64,000 bases of DNA from an uncultured Flavobacteriales bacterium (GTDB taxonomy: Bacteria > Bacteroidota > Bacteroidia > Flavobacteriales_F > PHOS-HE28): the NCBI GenBank assembly GCA_963814325.1, contig CAWFCK010000001.1, forward strand, positions 306,880 to 370,879. Direction: 5' to 3'. The translations under genes and the position numbers were made by a program. Below, in pieces: positions 3,001 through 26,323 of this stretch. Position 1 is the stretch's first letter, and each line of letters opens with the position of its first letter. Below the pieces are notes generated by a model. That model saw nothing but the letters and a program-made list of their open reading frames with translations. It did not search any database and was not told where the DNA came from.

Positions 3001-4853
3001 GAGTACATCAACGTACCGGGTACATTGGGCTGGCCGTTCGGCGATGTCCAGGCGTTACCGCAGTTGTCGTATCCGGGCTCGGCTTTGAAGGAGTAGACCA
3101 GTACGCCGAACGGGTCGTAAAGACGAAGACCATCTTCGGTATACGTATCGTTGCTGGTCCACACAAGGGAAATGGTGGATCCACTGCAGATGCTCACAGG
3201 CACGTCCACAGGACCGCAACCAGAAGACAGGTTAGCCGTGCCGAAGGTGCCCAAGGAAGCACCGTTCTGCAGGATCTGGAATGCACCGCCATTCCATCCA
3301 TCGCCGTATTGATCGGTGAAGCGCAGGATGTAATTGCAGGACGTACCAGCACAGGCCGTGGTGAAGTTCACCGGCGCTGCGTTAACGCTGTACAACGTTC
3401 CCGGAGTGCACTCCTGACGAACGTACACGCTGTACCCCGTCAGGGCCGTGAGGCCAGTGATGGTCACTGGGCTGGCCGCGATCGCACCGCCGGTCCAGAT
3501 GGTTCCACCTGCACCGGCTGTGCCGCCGGTACCGGGGGTGAAGCCCGTAGGACCATATTCCACGATATACTGACCCGTGCAACCTGCGCAGGTCCAACTG
3601 ACATCAGCGCTTGAGGTGGTCACATTGGAAACGGCCGGTGTGGGTTGTGTGCAGGCCACAGCGCAGGAGCCGGTGTACGAAACGTTCAGGTCAAGGCCGG
3701 TACCAACAACGCTACCATCGGAGGTGAACTGGACCGTGAGGGTTTGGCCTGCCGTTCCCGTGTAACTGATCGTACCGCTACCACCCACGTTCTGGGCAAG
3801 AATGGCACCACCGGTACCGGAACCGTCACGGATGTACAGGTGATCGCAGCAGCTTTCCAGACCGAAGGTTCCACTGATGCTGATCACCGCTCCTCCCAGT
3901 GCATTCAGCACGGTGTATCCGTTGGCGTTGTTGCTGTAACTGCCGGAACCTGCATGGTCCTGAAGAACCGTGTTCGTGCCGCAGGCCACGCTGTTGTTGC
4001 CCGAAAATGGAACAAGCGTGACCGGTGGAAGGCAGGATCCCGAGTAGGTCACTGCAAGGTCGAAGCCGGAAAATTCCACACTACCATCCGAGGTGAAACC
4101 CACAGTGAGCGTCTGGCCCGGGGCCCCCGTGTAGTTGATGGTGCTATTGCCGGATACCGGCCCGAAGACCACAGCACCACCTGTGCCAGATCCATTGTAT
4201 ATGGTGATGAAGTCGAAAGAGCTTTCCGTGTCATACGATCCCGCGATGTTGATCACTGCGCTGTTCGCGGCGTTCAGTACGGTGTAGCCATTGGCATTGG
4301 TAGCATAGTTGCTCGTACCAGCATGATCCTGCAGGGTGACGTTGCTGCCGCAGGTCACACTATTGTTTCCACTGAAGGGGACCAGCGTAACGGTGGGTCC
4401 AGCGGAACAGGTGGTGGAGTATGACATCGTGGTCGCTGAGGTAAGCGCCGAGCACGAATAGTTCGTGAGCAGGATCGACCGCGTAGTGGTGACCGTTTCC
4501 GTGTAGGTGATGGTGGAGGCCGCTCCATTACAATCGTCATCACTGGACGCGAGCACCGCTCCTCCGGTAGCCGTATCGTACAGCCGGAGATAGGTGTCAT
4601 TAAAGGCCGTACACGTATTGAAGTTGTATGTACAACCGGCCGTGGTATTGAACGACCAATAGACAAAGGAGCCACTCTCTCCAACCACGGTCTGTACCGG
4701 TATGGTCGGGGTCAGCGTTCCCATATCGGTAGCCGCACTGCAGAATTGTGCGTTCGAGGTGTTGCTCAGGAATAATCCTGAGACCAGCGCCATGAGCATT
4801 AGCCACCAAGGCGTTCGCCGAAGCGTGCCCGGCGAAGAGTTAAGTCCATTCAT
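1..4853 (-). CDS. Giant secreted multidomain surface protein (CUB-like, Cys-containing FN3-like and Cys-bounded PPC-like modules). The 3' end lies beyond the window start. Frameshifted as assembled.
   Basis: ORF 708..4853 (1381 aa) starts with the signal peptide MNGLNSSPGTLRRTPWWLMLMALVSGLFLSNTSNAQ. It has two CUB-like modules (FDFITIYNGSGTGG, DHLYIRDGSGTGG) and three FN3-like modules (SWTCxxCTGxYxVEYGPTGFTPGTG...YVRQxC). It also has repeated modules of the form DDxCxxAxxV...WYxYTP...FDTRxxxFxGxC. Below 708 the protein continues in other frames (ORF 378..677, plus an unlisted frame reading ...NYRLLVYNAGGTAEGSFGLLVSHPGFNDAGISA...SSYDATGQTVKV to nt 1). This tail is collinear with residues of the neighbouring gene 5151..7826. 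Confidence 0.8.
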
Positions 4854-5088
4854 GTTGTAGGGCGTTAGGTTGGGTTAGGTGTTCACTACATGAGTTGGTG
4901 GCTAAGCGGGCCATCTCCGTTGGTAAGTTCCACTTGGGCATTAAGCCCCACGGAACTGCTGGCACTGATGTGATTCTGCGGATGAGCGTGTGGAGCGTTG
5001 GTTTGGTCGGGTGGGGGTTGATGTTGGTCGACAGTTCGGTTCGGTGGAGTAATGTACAGGGTTGGAACCGAAGATCACGTGATCTGAG

Positions 5089-11100: not shown

Positions 11101-14100
11101 CACCACCTTCGTGGTACACACGGATGTAGTAATCATTGCTGGGGGTGAGGCCCGTGAGGACTGCATCCACCACTCCACCATCACCAGCGGACACCACGCA
11201 GACGGCGGGGGCCAGGGGCGTGGCAGCAGGGGCGTTCAGCACCTCAACGCGAGGCTTGTAACCACCCGATCCGTAGACACGCGCTGTATAGATCGGCTGC
11301 GAGGCCGTGAAACGGAACCACACATCATCATCTGCATTGCCGCTGCACACGGTCTGTGCCGAAGGCGTTGCAAAACGGGATGAGTAGAAGTTGCCGCAGA
11401 GGTTACTGGGGAAGCTGGGCTGAGGCGTGAGCACGGTGGCCGTGGCAGCTTCGTTATTCACCGGTGCGGTTTCAGCAGGAGGCGTGAAGCCGGCGTAGGC
11501 GCCCGGCGTAAGCTTGATGCTGGAATTGCACTCAGGCATGCTGCTCAAGGCGTTCGCGCCCTGGCTGGCCAGCACCATTCCCGCATTGGAGAAGGCGGTG
11601 GTGTTCTCGTACTGCATGGTGAACACCTGACCGGGCAGCGGGTTGCCGTTGATCACGCTGGCACCAATACCCGTGGTGTAGGTGTAGCGGTGGTTGTTCG
11701 TTCCGTTGAATCCTTGGAACAGACCGTAGTTGAACTTGATGCTGTTGTCCGATTCGTCCAATACCACCTGGAAGGTAAGCGAGGGTCCCGCGGCACCGAA
11801 AACGGTGTAGTTGTTCCATTCCACCACGATCTGGCGTGAACCCGGGGTGCCACCGATGATCTGGTAGCGCGAACGGGCGTTCACCGTGGCATTCGTGAAG
11901 TCATGGGGGTTGGTGGTCAGGTCATCCCAGAACGGGGCTACGATCAAGGGGATCGACGCATTGATCACGTTCGAGAAGGTGGTAAGGGTCGTGCTGGGGC
12001 TGGAGGCCGTGATCAGCTTGATCCAACCGTTGGTGCACATATTGAAGCCCGTGACCGTTTGCCCGAGGTACTGGAACGTGGAGGCCGGAATGCTCACTGC
12101 CGGTGAGGTCTGGTCGTCCGTGCTCGTCCCGGTGAAGCCGACGCTTGAACCCGTGTTCAGGATGGAATTGAACGTATTGCCGGTGGTGCGTGCAACCGTG
12201 TAGTTCAAGTTGACAGGCACGTATGTAGAACTCCAGGCGAAGTAGTCATCACCCGAAATGGTGATGGGGCCTGGTGCACCGATCGCCGTCGTACGGCTGC
12301 CTGTGGCCGGAAGGCCGCCGGTGCCGCTCGTCAAGCTGCGCACGGTCCAAGGACCGGTCAGTGCGGTGCTCTGCGCAACGAACAGGCTCTGCTGGTCGCT
12401 GTTGAGCAGGTCGTTCACGTTCCAGTTCAGCGTGGCCGTCGGGTTGTTGCCGAAGGTCGTACCTCCGGGCAACTGCAAGCGATAGGAACGCGTGCCTGTG
12501 ATACCCACGCTTCCGCTCGGTGCACCCACCTGGGTGGCCGAGAAGGTCGTGGCCGTGTTACCGGCGAAGGGCACGGCGTTGTTCGTGGTCCCCGTGTTCA
12601 CGGCGAAAGCCGCTTGGAACGGGAAGGTGCGCGTGAGCGGGCCACCGATGTTGGTGAGGGTGATCCTGCCGAGCACGCTGGCGGTGGTGGATCCCGCCTG
12701 ACCTGCGTAGTTCGGGTTGGAGAAGACCAGCGTGTTCGCGCCTGTGTTGAGGATGCCCGCTGTCAGGGTGATCGGAGCAGCTGCGTACAGTTCCAAGTTA
12801 CCCGCAGAGAGGGTGAAGCCTTGGTTGCCTGCACCCATGGTCAGCGCGTTGATGCGACGGTTCGAGGGCATCAAGGGACCCAGGTTGGCCTCCGTGTGCG
12901 GGGCGTTCACCGTGACCGGTGTTACACCGTTGATCGCACTCGCCGTGAAGTTGGACATGTTCAAGTTGAACAATCCAATGCGAGCAGTAGGTGTTACAGC
13001 CGCCACCTGGGGAGCAACGACCGTGCTGAGCGCCATCGTCGGTGCTGCAGCATAACCGAAGCCAGGTGTGGTGACCGTGTAGTTGTTCAACTGCCCGACC
13101 CCGTTGAGGTTGGCCGTCACCTGCGCCCAGCAACCGGCCGGGATGGTGAGGACCAGACCTGCGCCACCACCACCGGTGATGGTGAAGCCCGTGGGAGGAA
13201 CCGAATACAGGGCCGAGGTCGTAAGGTAGCAGCTCACCACCTGGCCTGCGGCCACCGTGGTCGTAAAGACGTTCGTACCTGAAATGATCGTTCCACCCGT
13301 GAAGGTCACCGTGGGAACGCTGGTGTACCCAGTGCCCGCTGAAGTAACGAAGTTCACCAGCGAAGGACCACCGATGCCGACCGTGGGAGGGGCCGTGTAA
13401 TAACCGTAGCTGCCCGAGGCACCTACGCCACCCACGCCCTGACCATTGTTGATCGGCAAGGCGCCGGATACCGTGGCCGTGGCCTGCTTCTGGCCAAGGG
13501 TGTTCGCCGCACCGATCGCGATCGGCACGACCACACTAACGGCCGTCGGGTTCGTTCCCGAAGCAGTAGCAAAACCAATAGCGGGCGAGGCAAAGAGGCC
13601 CGATCCCGCGTTCGTGATGTTCAAGCTGCGTACAACCTGGTTGGTTGCGTCATAGTTCAAACTGACCGATGCTGCAGTGCCGGCATAGGCTAAGTGTGGC
13701 CGCACCGCTCGCAGCCGTGCCGGAGAGATGCGTCGGGGGAGCAGCGTCGGCCGCGAGGCCTCCAACCGTTACAGTGTAGAGGTTCGTACCGTACCAGATC
13801 TGTGCGCCCGCGGTAAGCGCGGTTGTTACCTGGAAGCCCGTGCCGATAACGCCGGTGGGGCCGAGCCAGAGAAGCTGCGCCGTGCCATCAGGAGCAATAC
13901 CGGTGGTATGTACGGGCGGGTTCGTCGCATCCGTGGTACCGGCCGTTGTTACAAGGTAGACGTTACCACCGGAAATGAGCTTGGCGTTCAGAATAACCGC
14001 CGTGTTCGCCACCCAAAGACCGGTGGTGCCTGCGGGCCAGGTACCCGTTACTTGAGGCGCAGCCGGGAGCAGTGAACCCATGGCGGTCACCACGGCTTCC

Positions 14101-15689
14101 TCCACGCGTCCGTTCGTCGGCTGTCCAAAGATCTGGGCGGTGTTGTCCAGTTCCAGATTGCCATTGGTGTTGATCGTGCCGATCAGCGGGTTGATGTTGC
14201 CACGGATGATCAGGGGGGTGTTGATGTTCAAACTACCCGAGCCCTGCATGTGGATCACGCTCACGATGCCCTTCGTGGCCGTGCCGGCCAGGGTACCGCT
14301 ATTGTTCAAGTTCATCGTGCCGGAACCTCCGAAAAGCATCGAGGCGACCACGAGGTCGGCATAACCGGCGTTCGTGAAGTTGCCGAGGAAGTTCAGGGTA
14401 ACCCCGCCCAGACCGGTGGTCATGGGGTAGAAACGGCCCGTGGCACCAATGTCGAAGTTGCCGGTGCAGGTCATGGCGTTGGCCGTGGCGTTCCACTGCA
14501 TTACACCATCCACCTGGTAATTGAGGTAGTTGATCACTTGGTCAACCGTGACCACAGCGGTGGAAGGAATGCTGATGTTGTTACCGGCAGCTGGCACCAC
14601 GCCACCCGCCCAGGTACCTGGGCTGCTCCAAAGACCACCCGTTGCCGTGGTGGTGAAGAGGGAGGGGGGAGCCGTGGTAAAGCTGTTCACTGCGCAAGTG
14701 GCAGGACCGCCACCGATGTTCGTCGGAACGACCATCCAATAATAGGTGGTGCCAAACGCCATTGCAGGTGCATAGGTTGTGGCAGCAGTACCCGTCAGTA
14801 CGCGCACTGAGGAATCCTTCGCGGCCACAAGCGCCGAGTTGGTGGAGAAGTAAACATCATAGGTGGGTGCAGGAGCTCCACCAGCACCAGACCAGGAAAG
14901 AACTTGGTTGGTAGCAACCAACGTCGCGAGATCCGCTGGAATAAATGCCGTAGGACAAGTCGCAGGCGAGGGTGTGGCGGAAACCAACAGAACGTTATCG
15001 ATCGCGTGTGGAACAGCGGTTCCGCAGCATGTGTCGGTCTTCCAGGAAATGAAGATACGGACCGTGGTGCCTGCGAGTGAGGCAGGCAATGTGGCCGTTA
15101 CGGTGAAAGCAGTTCCTGCGGCGCCTCCTCCGATGGAGTTAGCAACCCAGGTTGCACCCGTGATACCTGTAGGCACACTGGTATTGCCACTTAAACCATA
15201 GGCGCTACTGTTGGGCGTCAGGGACGTCGGGCCATAGAAGACCTGGATCATATCAAAACCGCTTTCGCCAGCTCCTTGCCAGTTGAAGGAGAGGCTGATG
15301 GCCGTTTCGCCAGCGGGAATGGTTATATCCCGGTAGATGAAGGCAGCTGTGTTCGAGGTGAGACTATAGGTATAGTCAGTTGTCGAACCAGTTGCGTTCG
15401 CCCATGCACAGTTGCCAGCGAACGGAGGTGCAGTCGCCGGATAAGTTGTGGTAGGTTGTGTGCCCACAACCCACTGGTTCGTGGCATGGTTGATAACGGC
15501 CGTTGTCCAGTTGTTATCAAATAAGGTTGGCCCCAAGTCGAAATTGCCCCCGTTGGCCGGTCCGATCAGAGTTGTCTGTCCAAAGGACTGTGCGATGCCC
15601 AAGAGCATGAGCGCACAGAACATGGCGATCGAGCGCCACCAAGGCGTTCGCCGCGTTCCCGGAGCGGTGTGTGTGTTCGGATTATTCAT
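5151..15689 (-). CDS. Giant (~3,500 aa) T9SS-sorted multidomain adhesin-like protein, split into 6 ORF fragments by single-nt frameshifts
   Basis: The minus-strand fragments 13650..15749, 10673..13765, 10294..10893, 7950..10601, 7664..8632 and 5151..7826 join collinearly. One example is ...SGAATLS|YAGTAASVSLNYDATNQ at ~13688. The N-terminus is MNNPNTHTAPGTRRTPWWRSIAMFCALMLLGIAQSFGQ (signal peptide; ATG at 15689). Content includes GSGYTxxPTVT/GGGG repeats, five tandem ~95-aa modules (TWxx...Y.VYFxTN...CNTxYYWRVxPxNCxG...FTT), Cys-FN3 modules, two CUB-like modules and PPC-like modules. The C-terminus LWPNPVRDGRVNLQINEL...GVYTVNITVNDKQFTQRLTVVR is a typical T9SS type-A sorting domain. Confidence 0.75.
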
Positions 15690-15821
15690 GTGACGGGTTT
15701 TGGTTGGGTTGGTATTTGCGGACGAGGGTCTTGGTGAATGCTGTGGCATTGATCACTGCGGAGGAGGGGTCTGCTCTGGAGTAGTTGAACTCCGATGCGC
15801 ATACCGCGATCTCCGCGGAAC

Positions 15822-16593: not shown

Positions 16594-17364
16594 ATGAAGC
16601 CCCGGATCGCCCCCTGCCACTATGTGTTGCTCGGCCTGTTCATTTCGACCATGATCCCGACCCGCGTCCTGGCGCAGCACGTGGATGAGCCCCTGTTCGC
16701 CGAAGAGCTCTTCACCATACCCGATAGCCTCTTGGGCCAAAGCGAGCCCATCGATGCCTACGAGCCGTTGGTTCGGGCGCTCGGAGGTGATTCCATTCGG
16801 CGGTGCGATGGGCAACCATGCAATGGCTACATGGAGGACCACTATGCCGATGGCGTGCTGAAGCACCGTGGCTATTACCAGGATGGGCATTTGTTGGTGT
16901 ACAGGAACTACTGGCCCAATGCGCTCCTCGAGCGCGAATACCAGGTAACGAGCAACACACGCAGCAGCCTGGCCACCTTCCACCCGAACGGCCAGCCGCG
17001 CACCACCACGGTGTACGTGAAAGGCGAACAGCGCAGCTATAGCGAGCACTACGTGAACGGCCAGTTGCGCTACGCCGAGGAGCGGCATACCGACTTACCG
17101 GTATACACGCGCATGGACCTCTTCGCACCGGACGGACGGCCCATCAGCACATTGGAACTTGTTGATAAGAAGCGTGTGGTGATGGCGCAGAAGGAGTACT
17201 GGCCGAACGGCCTTATCCGTTGCGAAGGACGCTCACAATACGACCGCCAGCAAGGCGACTCGCAACGCATCGGGGAATGGGTGTACAATGACGAGAGCGG
17301 GCAGGCCTTGCGGAAGGAGAGTTATGTGGGAGGCAAGGTGCACCTGGTGGCGGAGGTGAGGTAG
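16594..17364 (+). CDS. MORN-repeat-variant / YwqK-like repeat protein with signal peptide
   Basis: ORF 16588..17364. MKPRIAPCHYVLLGLFISTMIPTRVLAQ is followed by repeated G.Y..YY.NG.L-type units (GYYQDGHLLVYRNYWPNALL, HYVNGQLRYAEE, EYWPNGLIRCEG, GEWVYNDESGQALRKESY). Confidence 0.6.
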   Translation: MKPRIAPCHYVLLGLFISTMIPTRVLAQHVDEPLFAEELFTIPDSLLGQSEPIDAYEPLVRALGGDSIRRCDGQPCNGYMEDHYADGVLKHRGYYQDGHLLVYRNYWPNALLEREYQVTSNTRSSLATFHPNGQPRTTTVYVKGEQRSYSEHYVNGQLRYAEERHTDLPVYTRMDLFAPDGRPISTLELVDKKRVVMAQKEYWPNGLIRCEGRSQYDRQQGDSQRIGEWVYNDESGQALRKESYVGGKVHLVAEVR

Positions 17365-17365
17365 G

Positions 17366-17557
17366 GGGGTAACCGCAACTGCGAGGCCGCATTTGGGCCG
17401 AAGCAGTCTTTGATCGGGGGGCGGGGATCGAAGATCGCTTCGCCCGGGACGGGCTCGCGAATCGGGAGGGATCAAAGATCGCTTCGTCGCCGAGCCTCCT
17501 CGCGAATCGGGTGGGATGCAAAGATCGCTTCGCCCGAGACGGGCTCGCGAAGCGGGA
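17366..17557. repeat. Hairpin-repeat array 1a: one short type-B element plus three type-A units (~44 bp each)
   Basis: The type-B element (ggtaaccgcaactgcgaggccgcatttgggccgaagcagtctttgatcgggggg) starts 3 nt after the stop at 17364. Three units of form GATCxAAGATCGCTTCG-[core]-CTCGCGAAxCGGG follow. The last ends 3 nt before the GIY-YIG stop codon (17560). Confidence 0.9.
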
Positions 17558-17559
17558 GG

Positions 17560-17862
17560 TCACCAGGTCGCAAGGAGTTCGTCATACAGATCCTTCCAAG
17601 TGGGATTGAACGCTTCGATCAGCGCGATCTTCTTCTTCCGGCTTCCAGCCTTCAACTGCTGTTCGCGAGCGATGGCCTCGTCGATCGTTGGGAAGAGTTC
17701 GTAGTAGACGAGGTTGTGCAGGTTGTAACGGGCGGAGAAGCTGTTCGGGTAGAAACGGGTCTTGTGCTTCCATGTCCGAATGATGAGTTCTGATGTCATG
17801 CCCACATATAAGACGCCATTCGGCCTGTTGGTGACGATGTATGTGGCGCCGCCGCGTTCCAT
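17560..17862 (-). CDS. GIY-YIG nuclease family protein (small URI-domain type, ~100 aa)
   Basis: ORF 17560..17871. From the ATG at 17862 it reads MERGGATYIVTNRPNGVLYVGMTSELIIRTWKHK...YYELFPTIDEAIAREQQLKAGSRKKKIALIE. The GIY (YIV) ... YVG motif and the C-terminal E...K..R..K motif are typical of COG2827-like GIY-YIG proteins. Confidence 0.85.
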   Translation of the reverse strand: MERGGATYIVTNRPNGVLYVGMTSELIIRTWKHKTRFYPNSFSARYNLHNLVYYELFPTIDEAIAREQQLKAGSRKKKIALIEAFNPTWKDLYDELLATW

Positions 17863-18573
17863 GGGGATCAAAGATCGTTTCGTCGCGGGGCCTCCTCGCG
17901 AAGCGGGTGATCAAAGATCGCTTCGTCGCGGAGCCTCCTCGCGAATCGGGGGGTAACCCAACTGCGAGGGCGCCGCGGCCGAAGCCAACCGCTACTGCGA
18001 GGCCGCATTTGGGCCGAAGCAGTCTTTGATCGGGGGGGTGGGGAATTAAAGATCGCTTCGTCGCCGAGCCTCCTCGCGAAGCGGGGATCGAAGATCGCTT
18101 CGTCGCAGGGCCTCCTCGCGAATGCGGAATTAAAGATCGCTTCGTCGCAGGGCCTCCTCGCGAATGCGGAATTAAAGATCGCTTCGTCGCAGGGCCTCCT
18201 CGCGAATCGGGTGGGATCAAAGATCGCTTCGTCGCAGGGCCTCCTCGCGAATCGGGGGGATCGAAGATCGCTTCGTCGCGGGTCATCGCTGCGCGTTGCG
18301 CAACGATGCCTGTCCTTCGGACCCTCGCGAAGCGGGGGTAACCCAACTGCGAGGCCGCCGCGGCCGAAGCTAACCGCTACTGCGAGGCCGCATTTGGGCC
18401 GAAGCAGTCTTTGATCGGGGGGCGGATCAAACGCTTCGTCGCAGGGTCATCGCTGCGCGTTGCGCAACGATGCCTGTCCTTCGGACCCTCGCGAATCGGT
18501 GATCAAAGATCGCTTCGTCGCAGGGCCTCCTCGCGAAGCGGGGATCAAAGATCGCTTCGCCCCAGGGCGGGCT
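17863..18573. repeat. Hairpin-repeat array 1b: 11 type-A units (two carrying a nested ~45-nt insertion) plus 2 long type-B elements
   Basis: The array begins 1 nt from the GIY-YIG ATG. Unit consensus is GATCAAAGATCGCTTCGTCGCAGGGCCTCCTCGCGAATCGGG. Two copies at 18126..18209 are identical over 40 bp with a 42-bp period. Long variants lie at 18258..18337 and 18424..18500. Type-B elements lie at 17951..18037 and 18337..18423. Confidence 0.9.
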
Positions 18574-18591
18574 CGCGAACAGGTATAACGA

Positions 18592-18619
18592 CCGCGGCCC
18601 CGACTTGTCGGGGCCGCGG
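18592..18619 (-). terminator. Putative dnaK terminator hairpin (12-bp perfect GC stem, no U tract)
   Basis: CCGCGGCCCCGA (18592..18603), loop CTTG, TCGGGGCCGCGG (18608..18619). It lies 20 nt downstream of the dnaK stop at 18639. The absence of a T run lowers confidence. Confidence 0.5.
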
Positions 18620-18638
18620 AACTGAATAATGGTAGTGC

Positions 18639-20608
<1,970 letters not shown>

Positions 20609-21933: not shown

Positions 21934-22753
21934 ATGAGCATGCACAAGGAGGTCAAACGCGTGACCACGCACACGCTGCAGGAGATGAAGCAAAAGGGCG
22001 TCCCCATCGCCATGCTCACCGCCTACGACTATTCGCTGGCCCGGCTGGTGGATGCCGCGGGCATGGACGTGATCCTTGTGGGGGACAGTGCCAGCAACGT
22101 GATGGCCGGACATGAGACGACATTGCCCATCACCCTGGACCAGATCGATCTACCACGCCAGTGGCGTGGTGCGCGGTTGTGAACGGGCACTGATCGTGGT
22201 GGACCTGCCCTTCGGCACGTATCAAGGCAATTCAAAGGGCGCGTTGAACTCGCGCCATCCGCATCATGAAGGAGAGCGGCGCCCATGCCGTGAAGCTGGA
22301 AGGCGGCGAGGAGGTGCTGGACAGCGTGGACCGCATCCTGACCGCGGGCATCCCGGTGATGGGTCACTTGGGTCTCACCCCCCAGAGCATCTACAAGTTC
22401 GGCACCTACGTGGTGCGGGCGCGGGAGGAGGAGGAGGCGGACCGCCTGAAACGCGATGCGAAGCTGCTGGAGGAAGCGGGCTGTTTCGCCCTGGTGCTGG
22501 AGAAGATCCCGGCCGCACTGGCGGCCGAGGTGGCCAAGAGCATCAGCATACCGGTGATCGGCATCGGTGCCGGTGGCGGTGTGGACGGGCAGGTGCTCGT
22601 GCTGCACGACATGCTGGGCATCAACAAGGAGTTCAATCCGCGCTTCCTGCGCCGCTATGCCGATCTGCACACGGTGATCACCGGACGCGGTGGGCAAGCT
22701 ACGTGAAGGACGTGCGCGCCAAGGATTTCCCGAACGCCGCCGAGCAGTACTGA
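21934..22753 (+). CDS. panB: 3-methyl-2-oxobutanoate hydroxymethyltransferase (PanB), interrupted by about four +1 insertions
   Basis: Fragments 21766..22182, 22112..22753 and 22266..22706. The protein reads [70 protein letters not shown]...[10 protein letters not shown]...[14 protein letters not shown]...[14 protein letters not shown]...IPVIGIGAG...[12 protein letters not shown]. Removing the extra bases at ~22146, ~22253, ~22683 and ~22699 restores one frame ending ...[16 protein letters not shown]. Confidence 0.9.
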
Positions 22754-22759
22754 CCGGCC

Positions 22760-23464
22760 GTGCACGAGCTCTACAGCGATGCGTACCTGTTGGCGGTGAA
22801 CAAGCCCGGCGGCATGCCGGTGCAACCCGATCCCACGGGCGATATGTCCCTCTTTCAACTGGTGCAGACCGGACCGCCGGAGCGCCCCGATGCCGGCATG
22901 CCACATCGCGTGGACCGGCCGGTGAGCGGTGTAGTGCTCTTCACCCTCACGGCCGAAGCGCTTGCGGCCATGAGCGCGCTCTTCGCCGAGCAGCGGGTGC
23001 ACAAGATGTATTGGGCCGTGGTGGAAGGAACTCCGGGTGACAAGGGTTCGTGGATGCACCGCCTTACGCATGATGCCCATGCACCACAAGGCCCGCGTGG
23101 TGGAGGACACCGAGGGGCACCCCTGCATGCACGCATTACCGCCGGCTGGCACAGGGCGATCGCTATGCGCTGTTGGAGCTGATCCCCGAAGGCGGACGCT
23201 TCCACCAGTTGCGTGCGCAATGCGCGGCGGCCGGTATTCCGATCAAGGGCGATGTGAAGTACGGTGCGCGTCGCGGCGAAGCAGGACCGCACCATCGGAC
23301 TGCATGCGCGGTCGATCACCTTCGAGCACCCGTTCACCGGAAAGCAGGTAGTGGTGGAAGCGCCGCCGCCAACCTCGCCGTTGTGGAAGGCGTTGCTGGA
23401 GAAGGTGCGGGTGAGGCGATCAAAGATCGCTTCGTCGCGGAGCTTGCTCGCGAACACGGGCTAG
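22760..23464 (+). CDS. RluA-family pseudouridine synthase, frameshifted; its 3' end runs into repeat array 2
   Basis: ORF 22760..23182 reads LLAVNKPGGMPVQPD...HRVDRPVSGVVLFTLT (the HRLDxxTSG-type motif). It continues in 23173..23757 (LLELIPEGGRFHQLRAQCAAAGIPIKGDVKYG) and 23264..23464 (IGLHARSITFEHPFTGKQVVVEAPPP). The last ~15 codons (RRSKIASSRSLLANTG*) are translated from the first repeat unit. Confidence 0.75.
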
Positions 23465-23833
23465 GATCGATCGCTTCGTCGCAGGAGCCTCCTCGCGATG
23501 GATCGAACGATCGCTCGCGGCTGTTGGTGCGCACCCGCTCGCGAATCGGGGGTAAGCAGCACCAGCGAGGCCGTCTCGGCCGAAGCCTACCGCTACTGCG
23601 AGGCCGCATTTGGGCCGAAGCAGTCTTTATCGGGAGCGGGGGGAGGTCAAAGATCGCTTCGTCGCCGAGCCTCCTCGCGAAACCGGGTAGGATGATGATC
23701 GCTTCGTCGCGGAGCCTCCTCGCGACACGGAGGATCAAGATCGCTTCGCGGTGCTGAGTGCACATCCGCTCGCGAACACGGTTGATCAAGATCGCTTCGC
23801 GGGTGTTGAGTGCACACCCGCTCGCGAAGCTGG
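23416..23833. repeat. Hairpin-repeat array 2: 7 type-A units (three with alternative cores) plus 1 long type-B element
   Basis: Same conserved flanks as array 1 (AAGATCGCTTCG ... CTCGCGAA). The cores include GCGGGTGTTGAGTGCACACCCGC (7-bp stem). The type-B element lies at 23551..23640. The array ends 1 nt before the priA stop codon (23834). Confidence 0.9.
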
Positions 23834-26323
23834 TCACATGGGATCCACGTCCACCACGAGGTGCACGGCGCGGTGCGCTTCTTCGGCGAACAGCCGGTCG
23901 ATGGTGTCGCTGAGGAATTCCTTCTCCGCACGATAGTGGCTGCGGTCCAGCTTGAGCAGGATGGAACGCAGGTGCTTGTCGCGCACGCGGGCCACGGGCG
24001 GCGGCTCGGGCCCGAGCACGCGATCGCCGAAGCGTTCGCGCAGCATGCTTGCGAGCACGTTGGCCTGGTGGTCACACGCTCCTCCAACGCGATGCTTCAG
24101 CGTGATCGCCACCAGCCGCGTGAACGGCGGATAAGCCATGCGCGCGGCGATTTCCAGTTCGCGCGTCGTACATGCCGTCCGTATCATGCGCCGTGACCAG
24201 TCCGATGACCGGGTGGTGGATGTCGCGCGCTTGGATGTACACCGTGCCGGGATCGCGCTTGCGACCGCTTCTGCCCGCCACTTGTGACATCAGTTGGAAG
24301 GCCCGTTCATGCGCGCGCAGGTCCGGGAAGCGCAACAGGTGGTCGGCGTTGACGATGCCCACGATGGTCACCTGATCGAAGTCGAGGCCCTTGGTCACCA
24401 TCTGCGTGCCCACGAGCATATCCACGGCCGCCTTCGCCGAAGCGTGACAGGATGCGCTCGAACGCATGCTTGCCGCGCGTGGTGTCCTGGTCCATGCGGG
24501 CGATGCGCGCATCCGGCAGGAGCAACGCGAGTTCCTCCTCGATCTTCTCCGTGCCGAAACCCAGCATGCGCAGGCGGTTGCTGCCGCAAGCCGCGCAGCG
24601 CACCGGCGGTGGGTAGCTCCTGCCGCAATAGTGACAGCGCAGGCCGTGCTGCTGCTTGTGGTAGGTGAGGCTCATATCGCAATGCTCGCATTCGGGTATC
24701 CATCCGCAGGTCTCGCATTGCCACACGGGCACATAGCCGCGGCGGTTCTGGAACACGATCGCCTGCTCTTTCCGCGCGATGGCCTGCTTCGATGCCCTTC
24801 AGCATCACATCGCTGAAGTAGCCCCGCATCTGTCTTGCGTTTCTGCGCGTCGGCGATGTCCACGCGTTCCACTTTCGGGAGCACCGCTTCGCCATGCCGC
24901 ACGAGCAGTTCGGCCAGGCCGTACTTGCCGTGGTGCGCATTGAAGAAGCTCTCCATGCTGGGCGTGGCGGAGCCGAGCACCACGCGGCGCACCGGCGGCC
25001 AGCGCCAGCACGATGGCCATGTCGCGCGCGTTGTAGCGCGGTGAGGGTTCGTGCTGTTTGTAGCTCGCGTCGTGCTCCTCGTCCACGACACCAAGCCGAG
25101 CTTATTGAAGGGCAGGAAGAGCGCAGAGCGCGCGCCGACCATCAGCGGATGGCCGGCCGGATCGTTCAACATGCCGCAGCCACAGCTCGGTGCGTTCGCG
25201 CGGCGAAAGGCGTGAGTGGAACACGCTGACGCGATCACCGAAGCGGTCGCGCAAACGCCCGATCACCTGTGTGGTGAGCGCGATCTCCGGCAGCAGGTAC
25301 AAGGTCTGTTCGCCGCGCTCCATGGCCTGCGGCGATCAGCTCCATGTACAGCTCCGTCTTCCCGGAGGCGGTGACGCCGTGCAGCAGGCAAACCGGTTTG
25401 TCGTGTCAAAGCGCGCGTGCAGTTCGGTCCAGTGCTGGTGCGCTGTGCGGGCGAAAGTTCTTTCCGCCTTCCCGGTGCCGGATGGCGGAGGTGGGCGCCC
25501 CGGCGGTGCGTTCGTACATTTCGAAGAGCCCCTTCTCCACAAGCTTCTTCAAATGGGCCGCGTGGTTCCGTGGAGCGCAGGAGTTGCATCGCGTTTCACT
25601 TCGCGCGGGCTCGTCGCTCAGGCAGCGGCTCGTTTCCACGTAGCGCATCAGCAGCGCCAGGAGCTTCGGTGCGCGTTCTCCAGCTTGTCGAACCAGGCGT
25701 GCAGCGCCTGCTTCCGCTGGACGCTGCGGGCGTCAAGCTTCACGAAGCGGTCCATCCGGGGCGTGAAGCTGCTCACCGATCTCCTCGGCGATGCAGCAGG
25801 GTGCCTCGCTCGAGCATCCGCTTGATCACGGGCATGGGGTCGCTTCAGGCCCAGCAGCTTGCCGGCATCGCCGAGGTTCAGTTCCTGGCGCTGTTCCAGC
25901 GCGTCGATCAGTATGTCGTGCTTCGCGTTGCCCGGTCCAGTGCGCGCGGGCCTGCGGCTGGCGCCGCACCAGCCGTGTTTCGCTGCTGAGCACCAGTGCT
26001 CCGGGCATGCGCGGCGAGCATCACCTCGCCCAGCTGCACATGTAATGCTCGCTGATGCGCTCCCACAGTTCCATCTGTCTTCCGTGGCGATCAGGGCATG
26101 ATCATCGAGCACGCTGAAAGCACGCTGCGCGGAGAGCGATGCAAGGGCGGCCTCCGCGTGCAACCTGCCGCACCACGGCACTGAATACATCTTGCGGCCC
26201 GTGCCGAAGGGCACCACCACACGGTGGCCCGGGCAGCACGCGCGCCGTGAGTTCCTCCGGCACTTCGTACGTGAAGAGGCCCGGGTACCGCCAGCGGCAG
26301 GATGAGGTCGGCGAAGGGGGCAC
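23834..26323 (-). CDS. priA: Primosomal protein N' / replication restart helicase PriA, heavily frameshifted (at least 8 indels) as assembled
   Basis: The minus-strand fragments are collinear with PriA. The N-terminus reads FADLILPLAVPG|LFTYEVPEELTARVLPG|HRVVVPFGTGRKMYS (26102..26440 / 25648..26649). The Walker A region reads LLHGVTASGKTELYMELI. Next come ERGEQTLYLLPEIALTTQVIGRLRDRFGDRVSVFHSRLSPRERTELW (25102..25323) and VVLGSATPSMES. The Cys-rich zinc region reads FQNRRGYVPVWQCETCGWIPECEHCDMSLTYHKQQHGLRCHYCG...RCAACGS (24307..24756). Further on: LVGTQMVTKGLDFDQVTIVGIVNADHLL...SQVAGRSGR, and the C-terminus in 23834..24187. The start is approximate (a GTG near 26323, in a C-run). Confidence 0.85.

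Follow-up and report, generated by a model that had tools for sequence, protein, structure and literature searches.

The window analysed here, a stretch of 64,000 nucleotides from contig CAWFCK010000001.1 of an uncultured Flavobacteriales bacterium, carries a gene for a small GIY-YIG nuclease packed between arrays of hairpin-forming repeats (Table 1). Comparison with homologues and relatives indicates that this open reading frame (ORF) very probably encodes a Flavobacteriales member of the Ssn nuclease family, and that the repeats are the version, in this lineage, of the NTS and Ssn-related motifs (SRM) that accompany such nucleases, motifs that fall within the CGTC-tagged repetitive extragenic palindromic (REP) sequences. 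The partnership between nuclease and repeat is already known (PMC11893778, 2025), and the present one is a lineage-specific Ssn/SRM (CGTC-REP) case, in which the novelty is a repeat variant missed by the published motif together with an unusual tandem organisation. A preliminary description of this DNA was made without awareness of any described GIY-YIG/REP partnership, in such a way that the partnership published in 2025 was rediscovered independently from raw sequence.

The Ssn family was defined by Chenal et al. (2025, Nat Commun 16:2388; PMC11893778) as single-domain GIY-YIG proteins of around 94 aa (CDD cd10448, GIY-YIG_unchar_3), with membership limited to proteins of at most 150 aa that give blastp E<1e-10 over at least 75% coverage. 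According to the same work, ssn genes are flanked by hairpin repeats, called NTS in Neisseria and SRM in general, with at least one flanking SRM in 71% of the homologues and SRM on both sides in 42%. SsnA binds the repeat as single-stranded DNA (ssDNA) only, and on one strand only, the cut being made a few nt upstream; the 5' box is called crucial for this recognition, and mutating the tyrosines of the GIY/YIG motif or the metal-binding residue abolishes cleavage (PMC11893778). Both the Neisseria and the Wolbachia enzymes cut their own flanking repeats, in Neisseria the enzyme makes repeat-bearing transforming DNA integrate less, and the authors liken the NTS-ssnA-NTS arrangement to IS200/IS605, REP, RAYT and BIME systems (PMC11893778).

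To place the window protein in this family it was searched by tblastn against a 7.3-Gb plasmid collection, where it matched a single place per N. gonorrhoeae chromosome (E=3e-17, 92% coverage). The records concerned, PLSDB NZ_CP119140.1 and NZ_CP119142.1, are complete N. gonorrhoeae chromosomes of ~2.17 Mb filed as plasmids. The gonococcal locus contains a 94-aa ORF with canonical NTS copies upstream and another copy that begins 3 nt after the stop, and the published SRM motif, HGTCWYN(0-2)YYVSBRHN(0-5)WNVSBRGN(0-2)RNCYNB, an operational search string derived from 29 genomes, found 9 copies in these 3.3 kb as a positive control. The NTS flanks and the 9 SRM copies identify the 94-aa ORF as the gonococcal SsnA orthologue. 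Pairwise BLASTP between this orthologue and the window protein gave 42% identity over 92 aa (E=5e-27), which, at a length of 100 aa, places the latter inside the size and homology limits of the Ssn family, and hhalign matched a profile of 47 family members to the same orthologue with a probability of 99.8%. The catalytic Tyr, Tyr, Arg, His, Glu and Asn of the window protein align with the matching SsnA residues, and across the alignment of the 47 members Y19, R29, H33, E67 and N86 are invariant, and Y8 nearly so. The family alignment also places the start codon at the ATG at 17862, which corresponds to the start shared by the family (MERGG...).

A Pfam scan of the 100-aa protein detected GIY-YIG (PF01541) as its sole domain match, over residues 6-78 (E=1.4e-9), and NCBIfam gave no match for it. 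The AlphaFold (AF2) model is a compact single domain with a predicted local distance difference test score (pLDDT) of 95.7, the credible Foldseek neighbours of which are GIY-YIG domains only (BH0048, Slx1, EF2693 and UvrC), the stand-alone proteins BH0048 and EF2693 being the nearest solved structures. A structure of Ssn was not found in the PDB by sequence search and Foldseek, UPF0213 was weakly matched (E=0.33), and no record identical to the window protein was present in the assemblies index. The GIY-YIG catalytic fold of the protein is shared with homing endonucleases such as I-TevI and Seg and with the UPF0213/YhbQ proteins. The GIY-YIG homing endonucleases have separate DNA-binding domains and cut duplex DNA; for the UPF0213 proteins we know of no association with repeats.

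Two further features of the gene and its product were observed. The G+C content of the gene is 54%, versus 60.6% for the whole window and ~64% for the arrays. In the helix that follows the catalytic Glu (residues 68-78), the window protein reads QLKAGSRKKK and SsnA reads QLKKWNRAWK; KAGSRKKK is consistent across the Bacteroidota clade, the gonococcal protein having KKWNRAWK. Judging from the alignments, this difference runs parallel to that between the hairpin cores of the two groups of repeats and could be a specificity determinant.

The arrays that flank the gene were detected by Tandem Repeats Finder at 17424-17559, 17866-17950, 18041-18279 and 18487-18579, with a period of 42-45 bp and 81-92% matches. 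An 11-mer core, AGATCGCTTCG, occurs 24 times at one mismatch or less in the whole window, where 1.2 occurrences are expected, and none of 100 shuffles reached 24. Unit-by-unit annotation, completed with one degenerate unit read directly from the sequence, gave four elements on the stop side (one B and three A units) and 13 on the start side, namely 11 A units, of which one is degenerate and two are long, and two composite B'B elements. The nearest unit lies 3 nt away from the gene on the stop side and 0-4 nt away on the side of the ATG, where the adjoining A unit (17863-17907) is degenerate, with CGAAAC replacing CGAAGC. The B element at the other end of the locus lies directly after the stop (17362-17364) of a convergent MORN-like gene. 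All this agrees with what the preliminary description had reported on the layout, namely a gene bounded within 1-3 nt by arrays of a 42-45 bp unit, with the same unit counts on both sides and, as far as the sequence goes, with no repeat-free room for a promoter. It had also noted two copies at 18126-18209 as identical over 40 bp; these neighbouring copies match at 40 of 42 positions, and a run of 75 nt is identical at an offset of +42.

The so-called type-B elements do not differ in kind from the other units but lie on the opposite strand, which makes the array a mosaic of opposed hairpins. A fixed distance between the units and the gene ends was tested and not found, the units being close to the gene at variable spacing. 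A CRISPR-like array was ruled out because the units abut without spacers. An Rfam scan of the whole window at the gathering threshold gave no matches and a permissive scan of 17300-18700 gave two sub-threshold chance matches, so the repeats are explained by no known RNA family.

In the sense of the gene, the A unit can be written as CCSNNTTC-GCGAG-(inner)-CGAAGC-GATCTTTGATC. The B unit has the form AACT-GCGAG-(inner)-CGAAGC-AGTCTTTGATC. An outer clamp pairs TCGC with GCGA in A units and ACTGC with GCAGT in B units, the GAG/CGAA internal loop is invariant, and the inner hairpin is one of several interchangeable modules, the smallest being a segment of 11-12 nt and the largest a palindrome of 56 nt. 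The 5' box of the window units, CCSNNTTC, is eroded from CCGTCATC, with some tags reading CCGTGTTC.

When folded as ssDNA and compared with shuffles, the units with long inner palindromes were far more stable (z=-3.7 and z=-4.0); a Neisseria NTS gave z=-3.2. The covariation of the outer clamp is a stronger support for the hairpin than these energies. Among 105 distinct clamps, taken with the inner module removed, 89% of the clamp cells are paired, versus 13-52% when the partner column is slid, and the third clamp pair appears as T-A in 54 cases, C-G in 42 and G-C in 2, with 6 unpaired, a covariation that none of 500 shuffles reached; two of the five clamp pairs are fixed by the search pattern and carry no information in this respect. 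The inner modules are found again in other species, their stems having changed in a compensatory manner; for example, the loop TGTGCAYTCAACA carries GGCTTG/CAAGCC, GCCTTG/CAAGGC or CGGGTG/CACCCG in different species. The hairpin-forming character that the preliminary description had attributed to the units is thus partly borne out, by the long palindromes and by the clamp, but less so by the commonest unit and not by one short-module unit, as detailed below.

Since the SRM motif was empty in the window, the relatedness of its units to NTS was tested directly on 80 metagenomic loci, with 82 genes for homologues at 48-61% identity. The 8-mers enriched 25-47-fold in the 250 bp that flank these genes assemble into CCGTCATTGCGAGGAGCGAAGCAATCCAG, and the position-wise consensus of the clade unit, CGTCATT-GCGAG...CGAAGC-AATCYMG, has the 5' and 3' boxes of NTS, CGTCATT-CCCGCG...GCGGG-AATCYRG. 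The density of units is 5.6/kb within 100 bp of the gene and 0.1-0.2/kb beyond 300 bp. A unit was found within 500 bp of 58 of the 82 genes (71%), and on both sides of 36 of them (44%), fractions very similar to the 71% and 42% of PMC11893778. With crude gene calls, units were present in 64 of 119 gene-adjacent intergenic regions (54%) versus 13 of 166 other ones (8%), which corresponds to an odds ratio of 13.7 (p=3e-18). Most gene-adjacent flanks have 0-2 units, more than four being found in one of the 119, and upstream units are mostly in the gene sense, the downstream ones showing mixed orientation.

In the five closer relatives (loci L001, L203, L204, L205 and L208) the gene is flanked on both sides without exception. 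L204 and L205, with 63-68% protein identity, have units of the form CCGTCATC-GCGAG...CGAAGC-GATCT, and in L205 both A-type and B-type units, in opposite orientation and with canonical boxes, lie on both sides of the gene; the unit type of the B element at 17366-17421 is among them, but with a canonical CGTCACT box. The 5' box reads CCGTCTTC in L203 (72% identity), CCGCCTTC in L208 (73%) and CCSNNTTC in the window and in L001. As read from these alignments, the graded series of 5' boxes, which spans relatives of 63-100% protein identity, ties the NTS-like unit to that of the window, and the oriented hairpins on either side of the gene are, on this evidence, evolutionary relatives of NTS. The preliminary description had proposed that the protein recognises or mobilises the repeats, and had named a lack of enrichment near the gene, with relatives never flanked, as the outcome that would speak against it; the odds ratio of 13.7 and the five flanked relatives are the opposite of this outcome. 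A functional partnership of protein and repeats is thus supported by two independent lines, this association and the homology to SsnA. The homology supports well that the repeats are recognised, whereas mobilisation is without direct support.

The likeness to the SsnA/NTS system of Neisseria comprises a small single-domain GIY-YIG protein of ~94-100 aa, a gene flanked on both sides by oriented hairpins, one of which starts 2-3 nt after the stop, and the presence of repeats elsewhere in the genome. However, the NTS hairpin is a continuous 8-bp stem, ATTCCCGC, whereas a short clamp, the GAG/CGAA loop and a variable inner hairpin are found here. The window units also differ from NTS in the erosion of their 5' box to CCSNNTTC and in their 3' box, GATCTTTGATC, and the SRM expression misses them. 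In addition, the head-to-tail arrays of up to 13 elements set this locus apart from the systems described in PMC11893778. The host is a member of the Flavobacteriales, and the main text of that paper names no Bacteroidota, the Bacteroidota clade being known here from sequence alone.

The CGTC-tagged REPs have been defined in five phyla, Bacteroidetes included (Di Nocera, De Gregorio, Rocco 2013, BMC Genomics 14:522, PMC3733652), and comprise Neisseria dRS3, which is the CGTC-1 family, and the RPE-4/6 elements of Rickettsia. They have no associated transposase, appear mostly as head-to-head dimers, with negligible head-to-tail arrangements and rare clusters, and their described families have continuous stems of 8-9 bp and loops of 4-5 nt (PMC3733652). 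Like them, the window units are intergenic palindromes. The marks of these REPs, namely an unpaired CGTC (or TGTC/CCTC) tag at one end, A-T pairs in the first stem positions and a short tail on the 3' side, are present in the repeats of the Bacteroidota clade at large, as well as in those of L204 and L205. In the window itself, by contrast, the tag is degenerate (CCSNNTTC, in some cases CCGTGTTC), the stem is interrupted rather than continuous over 8-9 bp, the inner modules are variable and reach up to 56 nt, and head-to-tail arrays with opposed B elements dominate. Long head-to-tail arrays and an interrupted, modular hairpin are unusual against this background.

A likeness also exists to REP sequences and bacterial interspersed mosaic elements (BIMEs) with their REP-associated tyrosine transposases (RAYTs), as in REPtrons and REPINs. 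It consists of a gene flanked by hairpins that its product presumably recognises, intergenic repeats scattered in the genome, mosaic clusters in both orientations, and an expected recognition as ssDNA. Nevertheless, the flanked gene of a REPtron is a RAYT, and the one found here encodes a GIY-YIG hydrolytic nuclease and not an HUH/Y1 tyrosine transposase, the tag being CGTC and not that of the GTAG superfamily. The preliminary description had pointed out a REPtron-like layout in which the tyrosine transposase is replaced by a GIY-YIG nuclease, and the same analogy is drawn in PMC11893778.

Several observations weigh against the assignment of the locus to the Ssn/SRM systems. The published SRM motif gave no matches in the whole window, where 0.5 are expected, and was found within 500 bp of merely one of the 82 homologue genes. 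The homology was measured on the N. gonorrhoeae orthologue and not on N. meningitidis SsnA itself. The 5' box is eroded here, so that there is no guarantee that precisely these units are recognised. Folding is moderate for the commonest A unit (z=-1.8), and one short-module unit is indistinguishable from shuffles (z=-0.9). Units are also found without the gene, both in a second array of the window and as solo units in other Flavobacteriales/Bacteroidota metagenome-assembled genomes (MAGs), where no ssn gene was present within 8 kb; adjacency to the gene has therefore to be seen as enrichment and not as exclusivity. Finally, the window is indel-prone and L001 comes from a short-read MAG, in such a way that part of the contrast in copy number between them could be an effect of assembly. 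As regards the search for such loci, the pattern GATCGCTTCG-N(5-35)-CTCGCGAA, used to scan contigs, proved insufficiently specific and returned mostly single chance matches in unrelated GC-rich genomes, with five informative Flavobacteriales/Bacteroidota loci among the matches listed.

The closest relative of the locus, L001, belongs to a Flavobacteriales MAG and shows 97% protein identity and the same order of dnaK, ssn and MORN-like genes. It represents a different species, the flanking genes having 75-88% nucleotide identity. The two ssn genes differ by 22 synonymous and 3 non-synonymous codons, which supports purifying selection on a vertically inherited gene. By contrast, around ssn L001 has ~2.5 units on the upstream side and one on the downstream side, where the window has 13 and 4 elements, respectively, showing that the arrays turn over fast between the two species. 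In other genera the ssn cassette was found in unrelated genomic contexts. In L203 (72% identity) a units-ssn-units cassette at 3729-4660 lies between an ABC_tran and an ABC2_membrane gene. Genes of these two kinds are normally an adjacent pair, and the cassette looks like an insertion into the spacer of an operon. Two ssn homologues separated by 2.5-5.5 kb were found on one contig in both L131 (3476-3751 and 6001-6276) and L197 (2125-2388 and 7455-7742), so some genomes carry clustered ssn paralogues.

The quality of the assembly has to be considered as well. Three essential genes of the window, dnaK (18642-20548, minus strand), panB (21934-22750, plus strand) and priA (23837-26315, minus strand), are split over two to three frames and are intact in L001, which points to an indel-prone assembly, probably from long reads, and not to real pseudogenes. 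A pseudogenised neighbourhood was rejected in favour of assembly indels because all three genes are affected. With an assembly of this kind, differences of 1 nt in length within the window are to be treated cautiously.

By homology with the tested Neisseria and Wolbachia enzymes, the unit would fold when the DNA becomes single-stranded, be it during replication, repair or the entry of transforming or conjugating DNA. The small monomeric nuclease would then bind both the hairpin and the oriented boxes that flank it, and nick a few nt 5' of the hairpin, leaving duplex DNA and RNA untouched. In head-to-tail arrays the predicted nick sites would coincide with the unit junctions, where slippage or repair could add or remove whole units, and this would result in rapid changes of copy number between species. 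From the behaviour of these homologues we infer the cleavage of the present units as ssDNA and the position of the nick. The nuclease may also participate in array growth, and its cellular role may be, for instance, to restrict or modulate the recombination of incoming ssDNA, as in Neisseria.

A more active role can be conceived, in which Ssn itself drives the amplification of the hairpins into head-to-tail, BIME-like arrays with exchangeable inner modules, the unit junctions being nicked on ssDNA before slippage or template switching takes place. We consider this improbable. In such a case the eroded 5' box and the clade-specific QLKAGSRKKK helix would mark a re-targeted specificity, and Ssn would be the missing propagating enzyme of CGTC-type REPs, that is, the hydrolytic-nuclease counterpart of RAYT.

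Other explanations were weighed against the Ssn/SRM assignment. The units-ssn-units block could be a selfish cassette analogous to a REPtron, mobile at present or until recently, the scattered units being its non-autonomous copies, amplified or mobilised in trans by Ssn like transposable elements of the miniature inverted-repeat kind (MITEs) or REPINs. Ssn would in this case be the mobilising enzyme that CGTC-type REPs have long lacked. In favour of this view, the gene context differs in every genus, with one cassette between ABC_tran and ABC2_membrane genes, and in both L131 and L197 a second copy is found a few kb from the first. The gene-sense units upstream and the mixed orientation downstream are like those of insertion sequences, the arrays turn over quickly, the near-identity of neighbouring units implies recent duplication, and CGTC REPs are without a transposase partner (PMC3733652), the same idea having been raised in PMC11893778. 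Nevertheless, GIY-YIG nucleases hydrolyse DNA, and strand transfer or ligation is not known for the superfamily; in two species the gene keeps its synteny and evolves under purifying selection, and slippage or unequal recombination explains head-to-tail arrays more simply. We regard such a cassette as improbable, and in any case as compatible with the Ssn/SRM assignment, to which it would be an added layer.

If the repeats were generic REP-like elements, acting as terminators, mRNA stabilisers or protein-binding sites, and the gene a housekeeping GIY-YIG gene that happens to lie in a repeat-rich spacer, their adjacency would be a coincidence. Such a view accommodates the second array and the solo units without the gene, and also the location of the arrays where convergent genes end, a common setting for terminator-like repeats, but it is made extremely unlikely by the enrichment over 80 independent loci (odds ratio 13.7, p=3e-18), by the flanking on both sides in 5/5 closer relatives and by the fact that the Neisseria and Wolbachia homologues cut their own flanking repeats (PMC11893778). 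Long tandem arrays could also be mis-assembled or inflated in an error-prone assembly, as the frameshifts in dnaK, panB and priA and the much shorter arrays around the gene of L001 might suggest. This is very unlikely too, since the units differ in module type and order, unlike what is expected from collapse or inflation of one repeat, and the independent short-read MAG L001 has the same unit types at both loci, with a second array that is longer than that of the window. Moreover, the errors seen are indels and not duplications.

A large Bacteroidota clade of Ssn homologues turns out to be as tightly associated with hairpin repeats as the proteobacterial ones. Because the SRM search motif misses the Bacteroidota repeats, the number of Ssn/repeat pairs is probably underestimated in present surveys. 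The combination of clamp, GAG/CGAA loop and modular inner hairpin is useful to learn what very small enzymes read, and the clade is a source of new ssDNA-cutting specificities, an application in view in PMC11893778. The several-fold change of the arrays between sister species constitutes a natural test case for repeat expansion driven by Ssn nicking, which bears on how the transposase-less CGTC-type REPs spread.

Table 1. Location of the nuclease gene and of the hairpin units of the two arrays in the window.
Feature	Position	Strand	Remarks
B element	17366-17421	+	..AACT-GCGAG-gccgcatttgggc-CGAAGC-AGTCTTTGATCGGG; NTS-like orientation
Three head-to-tail A units, 3' of the gene	17423-17466, 17467-17511, 17513-17556	-	NTS-like strand is the gene sense strand
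ssn-like GIY-YIG nuclease gene	17560-17862	-	100 aa, single domain; only intact ORF in 17366-18584
Two A units directly 5' of the ATG	17863-17950	-	Same junction in L001
Composite B'B element	17956-18034	+	Two consecutive hairpin units, 17956-17999 and 17989-18034; same composite in L001
Five near-identical head-to-tail A units	18041-18256	-	Period 42-45 bp
Long A unit	18256-18336	-	Usual clamp around a 56-nt inner palindrome; ssDNA fold -24.6 kcal/mol, z=-4.0
Second composite B'B element	18341-18419	+	From unit annotation
Second long A unit	18419-18500	-	3' box slightly degenerate
Two A units, distal end of the upstream array	18498-18584	-	Adjoin the dnaK terminator-like hairpin (~18596-18619)
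Second array, part 1: three A units (third degenerate)	23415-23550	-	Orthologous to the L001 array at 4480-5070
Second array: composite B'B element	23557-23635	+	From unit annotation
Second array, part 2: four A units	23642-23833	-	Two carry the inner module cgggtgtgcactcaacacccg

The second array lies between the convergent 3' ends of a rluA-like gene and priA, and contains no GIY-YIG gene. Its unit of the cgggtgtgcactcaacacccg type folds as ssDNA with z=-3.7, and the same loop is found with covarying stems in L203 and L205. The orthologous array of L001 is longer than that of the window and differs from it in the order of the units.

At the start of the ssn-like gene, positions 17863-17885 read, in the gene sense, ...CGAAACGATCTTTGATCCCC-ATG, where 6 nt separate the ATG from the end of GATCTTTG, the 3' box of the last unit. 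This box resembles the Bacteroidota -7 promoter element TAnnTTTG. On the basis of this resemblance, there is a possibility that a leaderless ssn mRNA is transcribed from a promoter supplied by the unit adjoining the ATG; alternatively, the gene may be read through from dnaK.

Regarding the neighbourhood, very large secreted or adhesin-like proteins are encoded near the locus, both in the window (13650-15749, minus strand) and in L001 (11616-20303). One of the L001 genes in this region gave matches to Por_Secre_tail, fn3, GEVED and Laminin_G_3, as would be expected of a host from the Bacteroidota with type IX secretion.

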